Source of the DNA: Bacilli bacterium
GTDB lineage: Bacteria > Bacillota_I > Bacilli_A > RFN20 > CAG-631
Direction: 5' to 3'
Assembly: GCA_900754115.1 (NCBI GenBank)
Contig: CAAEBM010000056.1
Location: 2,936 to 66,935, forward strand
DNA: 64,000 bases
Each line of letters opens with the position of its first letter. Within the stretch, counting starts at the first letter, position 1. Below, piece after piece: positions 46,678 through 63,530 of the stretch. Both the position numbers and the translations under genes were made by a program. Below the pieces are notes generated by a model. That model was not told the DNA's origin and made no database searches. It was given only the letters and a program-made list of their open reading frames with translations.

Positions 46678-48045
46678 GTGATGAAATTGAAATATGAAGA
46701 AAGTAACATTATTGAATTCAAAGAAGTTTTAACTGATGACTTAAATTTTGAAAAAGAAGTAGTTGCTTTTTTAAATTATTCTGAAGGTGGAATCATCTAT
46801 ATTGGTATTGATAAAAATAAAAAAGTAGTAGGTGTTGATAACCCTGATACCATTCAACTAAAAATAAAAGATAGAATAAAAAACAATATAGCACCTTCAA
46901 CGATTGGACTATATGACGTTGTGTTAGAAGAAAAAGAAGGAAAACATATCATCAAAATAATGATTTCTACAGGGAATAAAAAGCCTTATTATATTAGAAA
47001 ATATGGAAGAAGTCCTGAAGGCTGTTTTTTAAGGATTGGAAGTGCTAAAAATAAAATGAGTGAAGAGATGATTGAAGATTTATTTATTTCTCACACTCAA
47101 GTTTCTTTAAAGGATATTCCATCACCAAAGCAAGATTTAACTTTTAGACAATTAAGAATTTTATATGATCAAAATCAAAAAGATTTAAGCGACACTAGTT
47201 TTTTAGCTAATCTAGGTTTATTAACAGAAGATAAAAAACTGAATTATGTTGCTTATTTAGTAGCAGATTCTAATTCAGTTCCTATCCCTGTAGCAAGATA
47301 TGCGGGGAATGATAGGATAGATTTACTTGAAGCAAAAGAATGTGGGTTTAAATCTTTATTAACTGCAACAATAGAAATTCTAAGTTTAATAGAAGCCTAT
47401 AATAAGCGTTATATGCATAAGACCAATTATGGTCATGAAACTGCTTATATGTATGAGTTTGATGCGATAAAAGAGGCATTTGTAAACGCTGTCGTTCATA
47501 ATGATTATACGATGAGTTCTACACCATGTGTAAACTTTTATAATGATAGAATGGAGATTATTTCAGCAGGTGGACTTCCTCAAGGGTTAAATAAAGAAGC
47601 TTTCTTTAAAGGCATTATTTCAAGAAGAAATCCTGAATTGGTTAAAATATTTCAAGATGTCAAACTAACTGAAAATTTGGGTTCGGGAATGAGAAAGATA
47701 TTAAGATATTATGATAAAAGTTGTTTTGAGTTTGTAGGTAAATATATTATTTGTACATTTAAATTTAAACCGAATCCTTTTGTTAATGAATTTAATTCTT
47801 CTGTATCAGAAATAAAAAATGTTACAGATGATGTTACAGTAAATGTTACAGATAAAATAACTATTGAGGATAAAATATTAAGAATAATAGAAAGTGATAA
47901 AAATGTAACTCAAGAAAAAATATCTAAAATTCTTGGTATTTCTAGAATGACAGTATATAGAATTATTAAAAAAAGTAATAAGATTAAAAGAGTTGGATCT
48001 GATAAAAATGGTCATTGGGAAATAATAGAAAATAAAAAAGATTAA
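46678..48045 (+). CDS. AlbA_2 (Schlafen-like) DNA-binding domain, HATPase_c_4-like and C-terminal wHTH protein
   Basis: About 455 aa. N-terminal ESNIIEFKEVL...VAFLNYSEGGIIYIGID (AlbA_2 pattern), central FVNAVVHNDY...GSGMRKI (ATPase-like) and C-terminal ILRIIESDKNVTQEKISKILGISRMTVYRIIKK. Start is ambiguous (GTG 46678, ATG 46681 or TTG 46687). Confidence 0.75.
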   Translation: MMKLKYEESNIIEFKEVLTDDLNFEKEVVAFLNYSEGGIIYIGIDKNKKVVGVDNPDTIQLKIKDRIKNNIAPSTIGLYDVVLEEKEGKHIIKIMISTGNKKPYYIRKYGRSPEGCFLRIGSAKNKMSEEMIEDLFISHTQVSLKDIPSPKQDLTFRQLRILYDQNQKDLSDTSFLANLGLLTEDKKLNYVAYLVADSNSVPIPVARYAGNDRIDLLEAKECGFKSLLTATIEILSLIEAYNKRYMHKTNYGHETAYMYEFDAIKEAFVNAVVHNDYTMSSTPCVNFYNDRMEIISAGGLPQGLNKEAFFKGIISRRNPELVKIFQDVKLTENLGSGMRKILRYYDKSCFEFVGKYIICTFKFKPNPFVNEFNSSVSEIKNVTDDVTVNVTDKITIEDKILRIIESDKNVTQEKISKILGISRMTVYRIIKKSNKIKRVGSDKNGHWEIIENKKD

Positions 48046-48055
48046 TTAAATTAAG

Positions 48056-48092
48056 AAAAACCACTTCATTCATTAAATTGAGTGGTTTTTAA
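48056..48092 (+). terminator. Rho-independent terminator
   Basis: AAAAACCACT-N15-AGTGGTTTTT. Confidence 0.7.
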
Positions 48093-48593
48093 TTTTAGTT
48101 AAAATGATTTGAAATAAATATATTAATTAAATTGAAAAAGATTAGATTGTATCTAGTCTTTTTTAACATATAACATGTTTTAAATTTGAATTATAAACAA
48201 AAAAATATCAACTTAAAAACAAATTATTTATTGTATTTTTGTGAAATTTTCTCAAAATCAACGAAAATAATTTAAATATTATTGATTTTTTAATGGAAAT
48301 ACGAATAATGTGAAAAGATTCGTTTTCTATTCAATTTTATGTTTAAAAATTATAAATCTCTATGTTGGCTAATAAAGACAAAACACATGAAAAAACTTAA
48401 TTCATATCATTTTACAGATGCCCTAAAATTTAATAACTCTTCTTTTTATAATTGAATATATATTTTTCTGCCGATATGTTCTTTCAAAATATATTTCATG
48501 TTATGTCCTCATTTTTAAGAGTAGTAATCATCGCCTAAAGATGTCTTTATTTTTTTATAGCGGTCCCTCAATGCTACTTTTAAATGAAAAACC

Positions 48594-48619
48594 TTGACTT
48601 TCAGTGGGGGGGGTATAAT
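48594..48619 (+). promoter_or_regulatory. sigma-A-like promoter with a G8 homopolymer in the -35/-10 spacer
   Basis: TTGACT (48594-48599), 14-nt spacer TTCAGT+GGGGGGGG (G8 = 48606-48613), TATAAT (48614-48619). GGAGGGG RBS and ATG 48641 follow. Confidence 0.6.
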
Positions 48620-48640
48620 AAAAAAAGGAGGGGTTATTAT

Positions 48641-49660
48641 ATGTCAAAATCAAAAAAGAAAAGTTTTTTAAGTGCAGGTTCAAGGTTCGCTGGTTTAATT
48701 AAAGCAATTATTATATTTGCTATTATTGCTGTTGTAGGAGCAATCATTTTTGCAATAGTTGGGAAAGATGCTACATTTATTTTTGGCTTTGCATTCATGA
48801 CTGGTATTGTTAACGTTATTTTTTATTTTTTATTTAACTGGATAGCGGCTAGAGGTGGAAAACTTGGAAAAATTGCTTTTTTTATTGCTCTTGCGATAGA
48901 AGCGGTTTTTATTATTTTAGGAATTGCATCAATTGGAAATAAGGCAATTTTTTTCAGTTCAGCCAATACTTTTTTAGGAAGAACAGGATATGTTGGAATG
49001 ATTATTTGTGTTCCACTTTTACTAAATCTTTATGTTCTAGATTATAGTGATTTCACTTCATTTGACTATCTTAATGGATATAATCGGCATTTTTATGGGT
49101 TATATGGTACTGTTGTAAGTGGTGTTGTTGCAATTGTTTTAGCAATTTTATTAAAAGACTTAAATCTATTAAGTATCATTACATTATTAATTGCGATTGG
49201 TGTAAATGTAATTACTGTTCTTACATGGATAAAAATGGGTATTCCATTTTCAAAAATGGAAATAACAACCGGTTCTTCATCTAGTTCATCTTCATCAAGA
49301 TCATCTAGCAGTTATTCATCAAGTTCTAGTACAAATCAAGGTGGATATACAGATGTTTATTCTAGAATGGAGTCACTTTGCTATGATATGGCTGAAAATA
49401 AGAGTTTAAATTTTGGTGATGTTGATTTCCAAGTTAGTTTAGTAAATATTACTTCTAATACTATTAATTTTAGAGTTGATTATCGCACAGAATTAAGAGC
49501 TGAAAAAGAATCAGAATTATATGAATTTAATCGTTTTTTAGAACAAGCAATGAGAAATAAATTAAGTGAAGTATCTAGAAAAGCTAAAAATGAACTTAAG
49601 AATTTAAATGTTTCTACAAATTATTCTGTCAATGTTGAATCAGGAAGAAAACTAAATTAG
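48641..49660 (+). CDS. uncharacterised polytopic membrane protein with a poly-Ser linker and a C-terminal soluble domain
   Basis: 339 aa from ATG 48641 (AGGAGGGG RBS). About 6 TM helices, SSSSSSSSRSSSSYSSSSS linker, then a ~100-aa domain I could not assign to a family. The track ORF start at 48584 would read through the promoter and is rejected. Confidence 0.7.
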   Translation: MSKSKKKSFLSAGSRFAGLIKAIIIFAIIAVVGAIIFAIVGKDATFIFGFAFMTGIVNVIFYFLFNWIAARGGKLGKIAFFIALAIEAVFIILGIASIGNKAIFFSSANTFLGRTGYVGMIICVPLLLNLYVLDYSDFTSFDYLNGYNRHFYGLYGTVVSGVVAIVLAILLKDLNLLSIITLLIAIGVNVITVLTWIKMGIPFSKMEITTGSSSSSSSSRSSSSYSSSSSTNQGGYTDVYSRMESLCYDMAENKSLNFGDVDFQVSLVNITSNTINFRVDYRTELRAEKESELYEFNRFLEQAMRNKLSEVSRKAKNELKNLNVSTNYSVNVESGRKLN

Positions 49661-49737
49661 GCATTTTAAATCATAAAAGGGCTATAAAGTGAAGTGTGCT
49701 CAAAAATTGGAAACTTTAAAAGAATTAACAAACCTAT

Positions 49738-49776
49738 AGGATTGAGATTTGTAATCACAAAACTCAGTCCTTTTTG
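49738..49776 (+). terminator. Rho-independent terminator
   Basis: AGGATTGAG-N16-CTCAGTCCT (one mismatch) followed by a T5 run. Confidence 0.6.
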
Positions 49777-50012
49777 TTTAATTTTAATTCTTTTAAAGTA
49801 TTCTTTTTTTTTGACTATATTTTAAAACTAGGTTTTTATAGTTTTTTTATTGAAATTTAATAAAAATAGTTATAAAAATTTTAGATTCTAAAATAGCTTC
49901 TATAGTAAAATTTAATTTTGAAGAGTTTAAATGAGGTTTCTCTACCAAAATTATTAAAACCCTAATGAAAAAAGAATAAAATGCCTTGTTATTAATTACA
50001 TTCACAAATTGC

Positions 50013-50042
50013 TTGACAAAAGTCGGGGGGGGGAATTATAGT
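50013..50042 (+). promoter_or_regulatory. sigma-A-like promoter with a G9 homopolymer in the -35/-10 spacer
   Basis: TTGACA (50013-50018), 18-nt spacer AAAGTC+GGGGGGGGG+AAT (G9 = 50025-50033), TATAGT (50037-50042). GAGGGG RBS and ATG 50077 follow. Confidence 0.6.
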
Positions 50043-50076
50043 GATATTGAAATTATTTACAATGAGGGGATAATGT

Positions 50077-51252
50077 ATGGAAGAAAGTAAAAAAGAAATT
50101 TTAGCAAAATTGTATTGTATAAAAGCCGGTTTGAGTGCAATTTCTTTAGAAAAAGATAAATTGAAAAAAGAAGAAGACCAATGTATTCAAATCCATAAAG
50201 AAATTGATGAAAATCAAAATAAAAAGAATCAGACGATTCAACAATTAAAGATGGTATATCAAGACATAAAAAGTAACGAAAGAAACATTGCTGATTTAAA
50301 TTTTCAAAAGAATAAATCAGCAAAAGTTAATATTGGCCTTGTAATAGGTGTTGGGTTCTGTTCTGGAATATTTTTTGGTCCAATTATCTGGATTGTGATA
50401 GTATTTATTCATGATTTGCTACAATCCATGAAAAATGGTAATAACCAATTTAGTAGTAATTTAATGGGTAAAATTTGGATTCCGATGATTATTGTGGCAA
50501 TTTTAACTTCTATTATTTATTATTTGGTGGATAAGCACAAAAAAAATACAGATAAAAATAAGCAAATTCAAAATTATCAATCTCGCATTACGCCTTTGAA
50601 AAAAAGTCAAACAAAGATGCAAAACGATCTTTCTAATTTTGATGAGACAAATAATAGATTAAATCAATCCCATACACTTGCATTAAAAAAATATGATCAA
50701 GTTAAAAATACCACCATTGATGCAAGTAAAAATTTATATGAAGCTTTGATGTTTGAGTTTTCTTCAGTTTTAGATTCAAGAGACTGGGAAAATATCGACC
50801 TTATTATATTTTATTATGAAACAGGGAGAGCAGATACGCTGAAAGAGGCTTTACAACAAGTAGATAAACAAAGACGTCACGAAGAGTTAATAGATGCAAT
50901 TGAAGAAGCTTCAAATAAAATTTCAAATACAATTCAAATGAGTATGAAAGAATTACAATCTACGATGATAACTTGTTATCAAGGATTATCCTTACAACTA
51001 CAAAAACAACATAATCAATTAGTTCAGCAAATATCACAAGTTCAAACGAATTTAAATTCAATAGGAGAAAATATAGGAAAAGTTAATGAATCAATCCAAC
51101 AATTAAATCAAAAAACTACTGAATATATTACATCAATTGCATCAAAAGATTATTTGCAACAAGCATTACTTGAAAAAATAAGTGTCAATAGTTTATCTTT
51201 AGTAGAAGATGTTAATTATCTTTTATTTTATAAAAAACCAGCAGTTCTTTAA
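50077..51252 (+). CDS. uncharacterised coiled-coil membrane protein
   Basis: 391 aa. N-terminal ~85-aa heptad-like K/E/Q-rich segment, two TM helices (IGLVIGVGFCSGIFFGPIIWIVIVFI; IWIPMIIVAILTSIIYYLV) and a long Q/N-rich helical C-terminus. GAGGGG RBS. Confidence 0.7.
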   Translation: MEESKKEILAKLYCIKAGLSAISLEKDKLKKEEDQCIQIHKEIDENQNKKNQTIQQLKMVYQDIKSNERNIADLNFQKNKSAKVNIGLVIGVGFCSGIFFGPIIWIVIVFIHDLLQSMKNGNNQFSSNLMGKIWIPMIIVAILTSIIYYLVDKHKKNTDKNKQIQNYQSRITPLKKSQTKMQNDLSNFDETNNRLNQSHTLALKKYDQVKNTTIDASKNLYEALMFEFSSVLDSRDWENIDLIIFYYETGRADTLKEALQQVDKQRRHEELIDAIEEASNKISNTIQMSMKELQSTMITCYQGLSLQLQKQHNQLVQQISQVQTNLNSIGENIGKVNESIQQLNQKTTEYITSIASKDYLQQALLEKISVNSLSLVEDVNYLLFYKKPAVL

Positions 51253-51253
51253 A

Positions 51254-51293
51254 AAAAAGCAGAAATTGAATTGAATTCAAAATCTGCTTTTTA
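51254..51293. terminator. bidirectional terminator
   Basis: AAAGCAGA...TCTGCTTT outer stem enclosing the palindrome TTGAATTCAA, flanked by A8 and T5 runs, between convergent genes. Confidence 0.65.
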
Positions 51294-51305
51294 ATGAAAT
51301 TTGCA

Positions 51306-52673
51306 TTATTTTTGTCTTTTTGTCATTTTAAATTGAATCGAGTTTAATTTAGGATAAAATGGTTTTGATTGGATTGGTTCATCAATTGTTTCTTTTTTTG
51401 GAATATCAACAAATAATTTAGAAGTTGAATAATCTTTTAATAAAGTAGAAGAATCAACTTTGCTCACACTAGGCAATTCATAAGAACGAGTCAAATATAA
51501 AGACAATTTTGCACAGGCAGGACCCATGAGTTCATATAAAATGGAAGAAGAAAGAATAATAGTGGTTAGCATATTTCCTAAAGTGGAAGGTAAAAGTCGA
51601 GCGCCTAAACTAGCGAGTCCAATAGCGACTCCCGCTTGTGGAATCAAAGCAAGACCTAAATATTTTTTATTATTAGAAGTTGAATGGGTGATGATACTGC
51701 CTAGGGTTGCTCCAATATATTTGCCAACAATGCGAACGATAAAGTAAACAACACCAATGATTCCTAACGTCGATAAAGTAGAAAGGTTGAGATTCATTCC
51801 AGATAATACAAAGAAACATAATAAAATCGGTGGAGAGAATCGACTTAGACTTTCAAATAAGTGATGATCGTGACTTAAATTAATATAAATAGTTCCCATC
51901 ATCATACAACCTAATAAAGGAGAAATGTCAAAAATTGAACAAACACCACTTAATAATAAAATCATGGAAATAGCGATGATAAGTTGACTATCTGAACTGC
52001 GTTTCTTTTTGAAAAGTAAAAAGATGAAAAGTCCGAAAAGTAAACCGATAGCGATGATTGCAAGATTTTGCAAAATGGGTTTTAATAGCAACATGATACT
52101 GAATTTTGCTTTTGATTCTACAGCATTCGCTACAGCAACGGCAATAGAAAACAAAACTAAAGAGACGACGTCATCTAAAGCAACAATTTGTAAAACTGAA
52201 TCGACAAAGTCCCCTTTCGCTTTGGTTTGACGAATGGTCATTAAAGTGGAGGCGGGAGCAGTAGCAGAAGCAATTGCTGCTAAAATTAAACTAAACGATA
52301 AAGATAAATGAAAAAGAAAATACATGACAATAAAGATGAAAATTGATGCCATTACGGATTCAAAAAGAGTAATGACTACAATTTTTTTGCCACTTTTTTT
52401 CAAGTTAGACAACATAAAATATTCTCCAACATTAAAAGCAATAAAAGCTAAAGCGATATCTGTTACGAAATCCATATTGGAGATGACATCACTTGGAACT
52501 AATTTTAAGCAATAAGGACCAATTAAAATTCCTGAAAGAATATAACCTGTGACATTAGGTAATTTTAATTTTTTTGTAATTCGACTAAATAAAAATCCTG
52601 CAATTAAAATGATAGCTAAACAAATTAATATTTTTGCAGAATGAGTCATGTTTTGAAAAACGTTATCAAGCAT
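51306..52673 (-). CDS. cation:proton antiporter (Na+/H+ exchanger family, CPA-type)
   Basis: 455 aa with about 12 TM helices. N-terminal KLKLPNVTGYILSGILIGPY motif typical of Kef/NapA-type exchangers. Confidence 0.8.
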   Translation of the reverse strand: MLDNVFQNMTHSAKILICLAIILIAGFLFSRITKKLKLPNVTGYILSGILIGPYCLKLVPSDVISNMDFVTDIALAFIAFNVGEYFMLSNLKKSGKKIVVITLFESVMASIFIFIVMYFLFHLSLSFSLILAAIASATAPASTLMTIRQTKAKGDFVDSVLQIVALDDVVSLVLFSIAVAVANAVESKAKFSIMLLLKPILQNLAIIAIGLLFGLFIFLLFKKKRSSDSQLIIAISMILLLSGVCSIFDISPLLGCMMMGTIYINLSHDHHLFESLSRFSPPILLCFFVLSGMNLNLSTLSTLGIIGVVYFIVRIVGKYIGATLGSIITHSTSNNKKYLGLALIPQAGVAIGLASLGARLLPSTLGNMLTTIILSSSILYELMGPACAKLSLYLTRSYELPSVSKVDSSTLLKDYSTSKLFVDIPKKETIDEPIQSKPFYPKLNSIQFKMTKRQK

Positions 52674-62531: not shown

Positions 62532-63530
62532 ATGGAATTATTAATAACTAACATCAGCGAAAGAACTGGTGTTAGAAGAGATGTTTTAGAAAAAGATTAT
62601 TATGTTACTTTATTATTAAAAGAATTAACTACAAAAAAGGATCAAAATTTTTCGTATTTTAAAGGCGGGACTGCACTTTATAAAGCATTAAAATCTGTAA
62701 GAAGATTTAGTGAAGATATTGACTTGACTGTATATGTTAATGATTTACCTACACAGTCACAAAAACAAAAAAGATTAAAACAAACAGTTTTAAGTTATGA
62801 GTCATTAGAATTTAAAGAAAAAATTAAAGATAAAAGAAATAGTTTAGAAGCTTCTTATCAGTATGAGTCACTTTTTAAAGTTGTGCAAAGAGATTCATTA
62901 CAAAGATTTGGAAATGTGAAGATAGAAGCTACGAGTTTCACAGTTAGTGAACCTGTAATGATGTTAGAAATTGCTCCACATCTTTATGAACTTGCAAATG
63001 ATGAAGAAAAGAAAACATTAGAAGAAAATTTTGATGTTACACCTTTTAAAATTGGAACAATATCCTTAGAAAGAATATTTATAGATAAGTTGTTTGCTTC
63101 TGAATACTATTATGAAAGAGGAATGTATATTGATTTTTGTAAACATATTTATGATATTACAATTATGTACAAATTATCTGAAATTCAAGAATTATTGGAA
63201 GATGAACAATATATTAATTATTTAATCGGTTTAAAAAGAACTGAGGAACTTGCAAGAGAAGGGGGAGTTTCTTGTGAAGTAAGTATATGTGATTTTGAAT
63301 ATTTGAATAATATTGAATTTTATGAAAAAGAAGATTTTATTGAATCTTTAAATTATATTCATGATACATATGTTTTTGATAATAAAGATAAAATTGAAAT
63401 TGAGGATATTCAAGAAACATTATTAATACTTCACAAACTTTTCTCTATGATAGAAAATGAAAATTTAAGAAAAGAAATTATGGAAAAAGCAAAAAAAGAA
63501 AAGAAAAAAGAGTCCGATATGGAAATGTAA
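62532..63530 (+). CDS. abiEii: AbiEii/AbiGii-family nucleotidyltransferase toxin (DUF1814)
   Basis: LEKDYYVTLLLKEL...YFKGGTALYKALKSVRRFSEDIDLTV is the DUF1814 NTase signature. The frame is open from 62487. AGGAG lies 9 nt before an in-frame ATA at 62505, so the true start may precede ATG 62532. Confidence 0.85.
   Translation: MELLITNISERTGVRRDVLEKDYYVTLLLKELTTKKDQNFSYFKGGTALYKALKSVRRFSEDIDLTVYVNDLPTQSQKQKRLKQTVLSYESLEFKEKIKDKRNSLEASYQYESLFKVVQRDSLQRFGNVKIEATSFTVSEPVMMLEIAPHLYELANDEEKKTLEENFDVTPFKIGTISLERIFIDKLFASEYYYERGMYIDFCKHIYDITIMYKLSEIQELLEDEQYINYLIGLKRTEELAREGGVSCEVSICDFEYLNNIEFYEKEDFIESLNYIHDTYVFDNKDKIEIEDIQETLLILHKLFSMIENENLRKEIMEKAKKEKKKESDMEM

Follow-up and report, generated by a model that had tools for sequence, protein, structure and literature searches.

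Two guanine homopolymers in the stretch of gut Bacillota DNA analysed here (64,000 nt in full, hereafter the window) lie within promoter-like sites upstream of two consecutive genes, which we call P1 and P2. Our preferred reading, to which we assign a probability of about 65%, is that these tracts (G8 at P1 and G9 at P2) are hypermutable repeats in the spacers of σ70/σA-type promoters and would act as slipped-strand switches for monocistronic membrane-protein genes. According to this mechanism, slipped-strand mispairing during replication would add or remove single G residues, each change would move the −35/−10 spacing by 1 bp and alter the use of the promoter by RNA polymerase, and expression would become heritably yet reversibly different between cells, either as phase variation or as graded expression. 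At P1, the G7, G8, and G9 alleles (13-, 14-, and 15-nt spacers) are predicted to be OFF or weak, and G10 to G12 would be required for ON; at P2, the G8, G9, and G10 alleles (17, 18, and 19 nt) would grade from optimal to weak. We infer that the hexamers mark promoters in use, that tract length sets transcription, and that switching is fast, reversible, and adaptive. P1 itself would presumably switch between ON and OFF, with an ON state that is hypothetical, since only alleles with spacers of 13 to 15 nt were found.

A sequence-only reading of the window had described the P1 promoter as TTGACT-TTCAGT-G8-TATAAT followed by an ATG at 48641, and direct reading of positions 48594-48619 bears this layout out, with the Shine-Dalgarno sequence AGGAGGGG standing between the −10 hexamer and that start codon (Table 1). 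About 7 nt, an A run, separate TATAAT from AGGAGGGG, and a transcription start site ~7 nt 3′ of TATAAT would give a 5′ UTR of ~15 nt that begins at the Shine-Dalgarno sequence. The spacer of the window allele is 14 nt, and the earlier arithmetic, by which some three extra G residues would restore canonical spacing, is right in that G11 gives 17 nt. Its prediction that this copy is OFF or weak likewise agrees with canonical spacing rules for a 14-nt spacer. The next gene has the same geometry: the P2 promoter reads TTGACA-aaagtc-G9-aat-TATAGT (50013-50042), and this site (18-nt spacer, 11/12 hexamer matches) is the top-scoring promoter-like site in 47900-51400. Both homopolymers are long enough for slippage (~7 or more G/C), and both lie between recognisable −35 and −10 hexamers, 5′ of a Shine-Dalgarno sequence and a start codon.

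The G tracts are far beyond what chance would give in the window, whose composition is 29.5% GC and 15.7% G. The only G/C runs of at least 6 nt in the 64 kb are the G8 at 48606-48613 and the G9 at 50025-50033, the longest of the remainder being G5 (five runs) and C5 (one run). In 100 dinucleotide-preserving shuffles, GGGGGGGG (G8) was expected 0.03 times, against three overlapping matches observed, a count reached in 0/100 shuffles; the run census and the shuffles thus agree with the earlier claim that such a G8 is improbable and that the neighbouring G9 is the sole other run of 8 or more. The composite TTGAC-N7-G7 has two exact matches in the window, where 0.00 were expected. When flanking DNA of the same species is included, there are four G runs of at least 7 nt in ~84 kb, compared with ~0.27 expected.

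Table 1. Positions of the promoter elements, genes, and terminator-like hairpins around the two G tracts (window coordinates).
Feature	Position	Strand	Remarks
Terminator-like hairpin and U-run, 3′ of the SLFN/AlbA_2-HTH gene	48056..48090	+	MFE −12 kcal/mol, z −3.2
−35-like hexamer TTGACT, P1 promoter	48594..48599	+	Identical in every contig spanning it; 5/6 match of TTGACA type
ttcagt between −35 hexamer and G tract, P1	48600-48605	+	Direct reading
Poly-G tract 1, G8 in the window	48606..48613	+	G7/G8/G9 across samples, giving spacers of 13-15 nt
−10 hexamer TATAAT, P1 (perfect)	48614..48619	+	Direct reading
Shine-Dalgarno AGGAGGGG, P1	48626..48633	+	7 nt to ATG
P1, 339 aa, multi-pass membrane protein	48641..49660	+	5-6 hydrophobic segments, Ser-rich linker, C-terminal domain of ~100 aa
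Terminator-like hairpin and U-run, 3′ of P1	49738..49775	+	MFE −17.8 kcal/mol, z −5.25
−35 hexamer TTGACA, P2 promoter	50013..50018	+	Promoter scan and reading
Poly-G tract 2, G9 in the window	50025..50033	+	G8/G9/G10 across samples, giving spacers of 17-19 nt
−10 hexamer TATAGT, P2	50037..50042	+	11/12 matches
Shine-Dalgarno GAGGGG, P2	50064..50069	+	ATG 50077 downstream
P2, 391 aa, all-helical coiled-coil protein	50077..51252	+	Central pair of hydrophobic helices
Terminator-like hairpin, 3′ of P2, common to the convergent Na+/H+ exchanger gene	51254..51292	+	MFE −14.9 kcal/mol, z −4.9

Terminator-like hairpins bracket each gene (Table 1), and P1 and P2 are therefore likely to be transcribed as two monocistronic units from one poly-G promoter each; because of the hairpin 3′ of the SLFN/AlbA_2-HTH gene, P1 should be shielded from upstream read-through. 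Other kinds of regulatory element were considered for the region and rejected. Only AT-rich inverted repeats of low identity surround the promoters, with no adjacent recombinase, which does not fit an inverton; there is no Rfam match for a riboswitch or other known RNA; and an intragenic translational frameshift switch does not fit a tract that lies 27 nt 5′ of the Shine-Dalgarno-bearing ATG 48641. A σB-like promoter with GGGTAT as its −10 element was also rejected, as no GTTTAA-like −35 element occurs at 12-15 nt.

We compared tract lengths among contigs from independent human-gut metagenome assemblies of many samples, retrieved by exact-protein look-ups; the lengths are those of consensus short-read (Illumina) assemblies, not per-read counts. 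Identity to the window is 99.95% or higher in the clean ungapped contigs; one N-gapped scaffold (L008/L018) and two contigs of ~2x coverage (L020 and L021) were left out of the indel count for clean contigs. Tract 1 is G7 in L016, G8 in the window and in L001, L002, L003, and L017, and G9 in L004, L008/L018, and L020. Tract 2 is G8 in L017 and L005, G9 in most contigs, and G10 in L013 and L015. The expectation that tract length would differ among related strains is thus borne out at both promoters, with flanks that are otherwise identical.

These length changes stand out sharply from the rest of the sequence. Over 21,057 bases, a single SNP and a single indel, the G7 of tract 1, set L016 apart from the window; over 7,078 bases, L017 likewise differs by one SNP and one indel, the G8 of tract 2; and L004, L013, and L015 show no SNPs and a single indel each, located in a G tract. 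The sole indel outside the tracts in clean ungapped contigs is a T6-to-T5 change at 47025 in L002 (ERR14040057), which in that one sample breaks the SLFN/AlbA_2-HTH gene into ORFs of 116 and 325 aa. The A/T runs in the 8.7 kb around the tracts, of which five measure 8-9 nt and 21 measure 7 nt, are all invariant among the contigs. On one haplotype background, tract 1/tract 2 combinations of 8/9, 9/9, 7/9, and 8/8 indicate independent variation, and both +1 and −1 G changes are found. Both tracts therefore show polymorphic length with conserved flanks among close strains.

The changes in tract 1 also explain discordant gene models for P1, whose called length (339, 351, or 358 aa) follows tract length, with several contigs for each form. 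With G8, ATG 48584 falls in frame and yields the 358-aa call, whereas G7 creates an in-frame GTG and yields the 351-aa call (window 48584-48640). The 351-aa and 358-aa calls are tract-length-dependent annotation artefacts.

We consider it very improbable that the length differences are themselves sequencing or assembly artefacts and that the tracts are stable in vivo, even though all data come from Illumina-based assemblies and some variant contigs have ~2x coverage (L020 and L021) and errors near the tract. Variant lengths also occur in long clean contigs (a 597-kb contig, L016, with G7 at tract 1, and a 44.7-kb contig, L017, with G8 at tract 2), the three gene-call lengths each recur, runs of A8, T8, and T9 never differ, and a G9/G10 polymorphism appears likewise at a homologue in Christensenella. 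Contig ends are harder to interpret. Of the 22 contig ends in 47-53 kb, five fall within 12 nt of a tract, compared with 0.23 expected (P = 3e-6), and this pile-up could fit length heterogeneity within samples or, alternatively, trouble in sequencing homopolymers. Four contig ends also lie close together in a T9/AT-rich part of the P1-P2 intergenic region (49801-49891), a point in favour of an artefact; since contigs break there too, assembly breaks are not specific to the tracts.

The proteins encoded downstream are mutually unrelated, and the idea that P1 and P2 are paralogues was rejected. P1 has no significant family in Pfam, NCBIfam, PADLOC, or PHROGs; P2 has none in these collections either, and the searches with the two proteins gave sub-threshold coiled-coil matches only (MakE, LeoA, ZorA, and a scaffolding protein). 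P1 is a near-orphan, with its own cluster and one relative at 37% identity (P0125) in sets of 5.8 billion and 1.84 billion proteins, the relative coming from the 1.84 billion representatives. P2, by comparison of its 276 matches, belongs to a conserved family with no assigned function. Its AlphaFold2 model is all-helical (pLDDT 73), and none of the PDB structures matched the model in Foldseek at E ≤ 0.001; the alpha-pore-forming toxins MakA, SmhB, and AhlB came closest (E ~0.03, TM < 0.3), a modelled resemblance that we regard as no more than a weak lead. Viral contigs yielded no relatives of P2.

The surroundings are those of an ordinary chromosome (Mfd, FtsH, HtpG, ThrRS), and the closest genome to the source species is that of Candidatus Caccosoma faecigallinarum (P2 shares 58% identity with its homologue there, and an LRR protein 77%). 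At its syntenic site (L022), the P2 homologue directly follows an XRE-HTH gene, and the SLFN/AlbA_2-HATPase_c_4-HTH gene and P1 (window 46678-49660) are absent; these two genes resemble an insertion in the source species. Farther along the window, an AbiEii-family gene (62532-63530) is followed by small ORFs, and strains (L206 versus L207) diverge after ~4 kb; the region 3′ of this gene may be a variable island.

The promoter layout recurs upstream of relatives of P2. In Christensenella-like Clostridia (L025, L026, L027, and L043, around 2949), homologues with 33-35% identity are preceded by GCTTGACAAAAACGC-G9-TAGAAT with a 16-nt spacer, and this promoter (TTGACA-AAAACGC-G9-TAGAAT) lies ~50 nt 5′ of the start codon. 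Another homologue (L029) has TTGACAAAAATA-G8-TG-TATATT (TTGACA-AAAATA-G8-TG-TATATT). Among 12 more Christensenella-like contigs (within L180-L194), the tract is G9 in 10 and G10, with a 17-nt spacer, in two, and three further Christensenella-like contigs are cut at the tract. The closest homologue, that of Candidatus Caccosoma faecigallinarum, has an A7-containing spacer in place of poly-G. These promoters suggest that the P2 family has repeatedly been under poly-G control, in Bacilli as well as in Clostridia.

To see how far the layout extends, we scanned GTDB genomes for GCTTGACAAAA-N2-4-G7+, which matched at least 120 stretches; the 80 stretches listed supplied 81 sites for analysis. Among the matches listed, 52 of the 81 sites have a TAnnnT hexamer directly after the tract, most often TAGAAT (19), TAAAAT (17), or TATAAT (7). 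Spacers of 14, 15, 16, and 17 nt were counted at 10, 15, 24, and 9 of these listed sites, respectively, such that poly-G promoter spacers peak at 15-16 nt and not at 17 among the matches listed (L060-L139). The modal tract among the listed sites is G9 regardless of how many non-G nucleotides the spacer contains, and the idea that tract length compensates for them was dropped for lack of a clear effect. Several genomes carry many such sites among the matches listed.

A larger tally of 94 sites, made up of the listed GTDB sites and those from exact-match scans, addressed what lies downstream. A Shine-Dalgarno sequence and an ORF were found within 200 nt at 57 of the 94 sites among the matches listed, and 40 of these 57 ORFs, again among the matches listed, have N-termini resembling those of signal peptides or lipoproteins. 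One such site (L095) reads GCTTGACAAAAGTC-G8-TATAAT, with a 14-nt spacer as at P1, and stands 5′ of a lipoprotein gene. Altogether, the survey suggests that the poly-G spacer is a widespread promoter type, found mostly before genes for exported proteins. Scans for the exact P1 promoter pattern in GTDB genomes and JGI metagenomes gave no match, the species being absent or masked there. Exact matches to CTTGACAAAAGTC-Gn in 11 genomes of distant phyla were considered as a shared cassette and rejected; such matches are expected if 'GTC' is simply one triplet out of 64 among a great many sites, and we give them no particular weight.

Many copies of a distinct cassette are present in Christensenellales MAGs (L063, L064, L073, L077, L080, L088, L091, L097, L100, L112, L116, L119, L128, and L134). 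It consists of GCATTTTTGTTCAAGC, ~55 nt, and then GCTTGACAAAAATGC-G8-10-TA(G/A)AAT, and its upstream part is an inverted copy of its −35/spacer part. Several copies precede paralogous secreted proteins with SipW/TasA-like signal peptides; in other copies, there follows a 20-nt palindrome that takes in the end of the G tract together with the −10 hexamer. Within the source species, a third G8 lies directly after a TATAAT, ~150 nt 5′ of a gene for a BspA-type LRR lipoprotein (L209/L210, 19175-19182, ~8 kb past the left edge of the window), and a G7 occupies codons 5-7 of a small hydrophobic ORF (L206, 20479-20485, ~9.5 kb past the right edge).

The two promoters differ in the spacings that their observed alleles provide. 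Those of P2 (17, 18, and 19 nt) lie both within and beyond the functional range of 16-18 nt, a plausible span from ON to weak. For P1, no allele of ON length (G10-G12, spacers of 16-18 nt) was seen in ~10 samples, only spacers of 13-15 nt. It is possible that the OFF state of P1 prevails in stool populations, that its promoter is decaying, or that poly-G spacers work below 17 nt; the last would suit the 15-16-nt peak of the spacers in our survey, among the matches listed. As to the slipped-strand promoter reading put forward from the sequence, the length variation, the invariant A/T runs, and the recurrent layout speak for it, while the missing ON-length allele at P1 counts against it. The very short 5′ UTR that a start just past TATAAT would leave, the tract-free relative of P1, and the A7-containing spacer of the closest P2 homologue also count against it.

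The spacings at P1 would also be expected if tract 1 were truly unstable but non-regulatory, that is, a neutral hotspot in the decayed or silent promoter of a dispensable orphan gene. In keeping with this account, which we judge unlikely, P1 is essentially without homologues, its sole relative (locus L195) has no G tract upstream, and P1 and the upstream SLFN gene are missing at the syntenic site in Candidatus Caccosoma faecigallinarum. Against this account, P1 has a perfect TATAAT, a TTGACT matching at five of six positions, and a strong Shine-Dalgarno sequence, and the adjacent gene has the same architecture at 17-19 nt. The short spacers are not peculiar to P1 either: spacers of 14-15 nt are common among the surveyed poly-G promoters that precede intact exported-protein genes, among the matches listed. 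The P1 ORF, moreover, has no base differences from the window in the exact-match contigs or in the other clean contigs that span it, although most contigs were found by exact protein match and this identity is not an independent test of conservation.

Alternatively, the tract could act in some other way: within the 5′ UTR, or where transcription begins, of a transcript made from another promoter (as for uspA1 and tprL), as part of a −10 element read by an alternative sigma factor for which a short spacer suffices, or through the reading frame of ATG 48584. We regard such modes of action as distinctly unlikely. Weak promoter-like sites do occur upstream, at 48282 and 48401, but sites of this kind are at chance level (27 found versus 25 expected). 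Although ATG 48584 is in frame with P1 in the G8 allele, and gene callers extend the product accordingly, it lacks a Shine-Dalgarno sequence, whereas ATG 48641 has AGGAGGGG. With respect to an alternative sigma factor, the 15-16-nt peak of the survey (among the matches listed) would suit a short spacer, but no σB-type GTTTAA lies at the expected distance from GGGTAT. The third G8 of the species (L209) comes after, not before, TATAAT, which also favours another mode of action; against it, the order TTGAC(A/T)-N6-Gn and then a −10 hexamer is common to P1, P2, and hundreds of other loci.

Homopolymers in promoter spacers are a classical device. In Mycoplasma hyorhinis, the vlp genes for surface proteins carry them at several loci per genome; the vlp tracts are poly-A, not poly-G, and the genes form a paralogous lipoprotein family. 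The Mollicutes are phylogenetically close to Erysipelotrichales-like Bacillota. Invertons of gut Bacteroidales and Clostridia, which provide these commensals with phase-variable promoters, need flanking inverted repeats and a recombinase, unlike the locus studied here, where both are absent.

A close counterpart is porA of Neisseria meningitidis, where expression is high with 11G, 2-fold lower with 10G, and 13-fold lower with 9G (PMC3639595). As at P1 and P2, poly-G stands between −35 and −10, and the porA product is an envelope protein (PMC3639595). However, porA encodes a known porin of a Gram-negative pathogen and its alleles are centred on a 17-nt spacer, whereas the present switch is a predicted one in an uncultured gut Bacillota, with spacers of 13-15 nt for the alleles of P1 and a product of no assigned function. 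In Treponema pallidum, tp0126 shares the G tract in the promoter spacer, between −35 and −10, with a transcription optimum at 17 nt; G7-G11 tracts vary within isolates, and most of the 17 genomic poly-G tracts are variable (PMC7864442). The genome of that spirochaete has 53% GC, the cases there were examined experimentally with FFLA and GFP reporters, and its tprL differs in that the tract overlaps the −10 element and not the spacer (PMC7864442). For hifA/hifB of Haemophilus influenzae, as cited in PMC7911514, the number of TA repeats sets the −35/−10 spacing, with ON, intermediate, and OFF states among which 14-nt spacers occur; this system differs in having a dinucleotide repeat, divergent overlapping promoters, and fimbrial products. 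We suggest that the present locus is a member of the porA/tp0126/vlp type of promoter-spacer switch, and that what is new is its occurrence in an unstudied commensal lineage. Our literature searches returned no description of a poly-G promoter switch in Christensenella, Erysipelotrichales-like bacteria, or other gut Firmicutes; the earlier statement that no such switch was described in low-GC Bacillota is thus roughly right for gut Firmicutes, but the mechanism has long been known.

Work on phase variation by simple sequence repeats (SSRs) has dealt almost exclusively with pathogens (e.g., Neisseria, Haemophilus, Campylobacter, Helicobacter, Treponema, and Mycoplasma), and attention in gut commensals has so far been mainly on invertible promoters. 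A 2025 review asks whether genomes rich in phase-variable loci are confined to pathogens or whether this reflects database bias (PMC11868660). Tentatively, and with somewhat less than an even chance of being right, we suggest that the tracts described here belong to a poly-G "phasome" of several loci in a commensal, and that poly-G promoter spacers are a widespread, overlooked system of uncultured gut Firmicutes. The third G8 and the G7 in flanking DNA, the Christensenellales cassettes, and the recurrent poly-G control of the P2 family support this broader reading.

Although such a mechanism is familiar, its probable host lineage, the pairing of loci, the reappearance of the layout before one conserved protein family in two classes, and its apparent spread among uncultured gut Firmicutes are noteworthy, as is the finding that tract lengths differ between people's microbiomes against a near-clonal surrounding genome. 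If the switch is confirmed, annotators would be warned that gene calls (339/351/358 aa) and contig breaks follow the tract, and proteins of the P1 and P2 type would stand out as probable determinants of surface or contingency functions. Tract lengths at the level of reads could then be used to track selection by phage, immunity, and diet on specific membrane proteins. Moreover, if the phasome reading is true, SSR contingency loci would not be special to small-genome pathogens.
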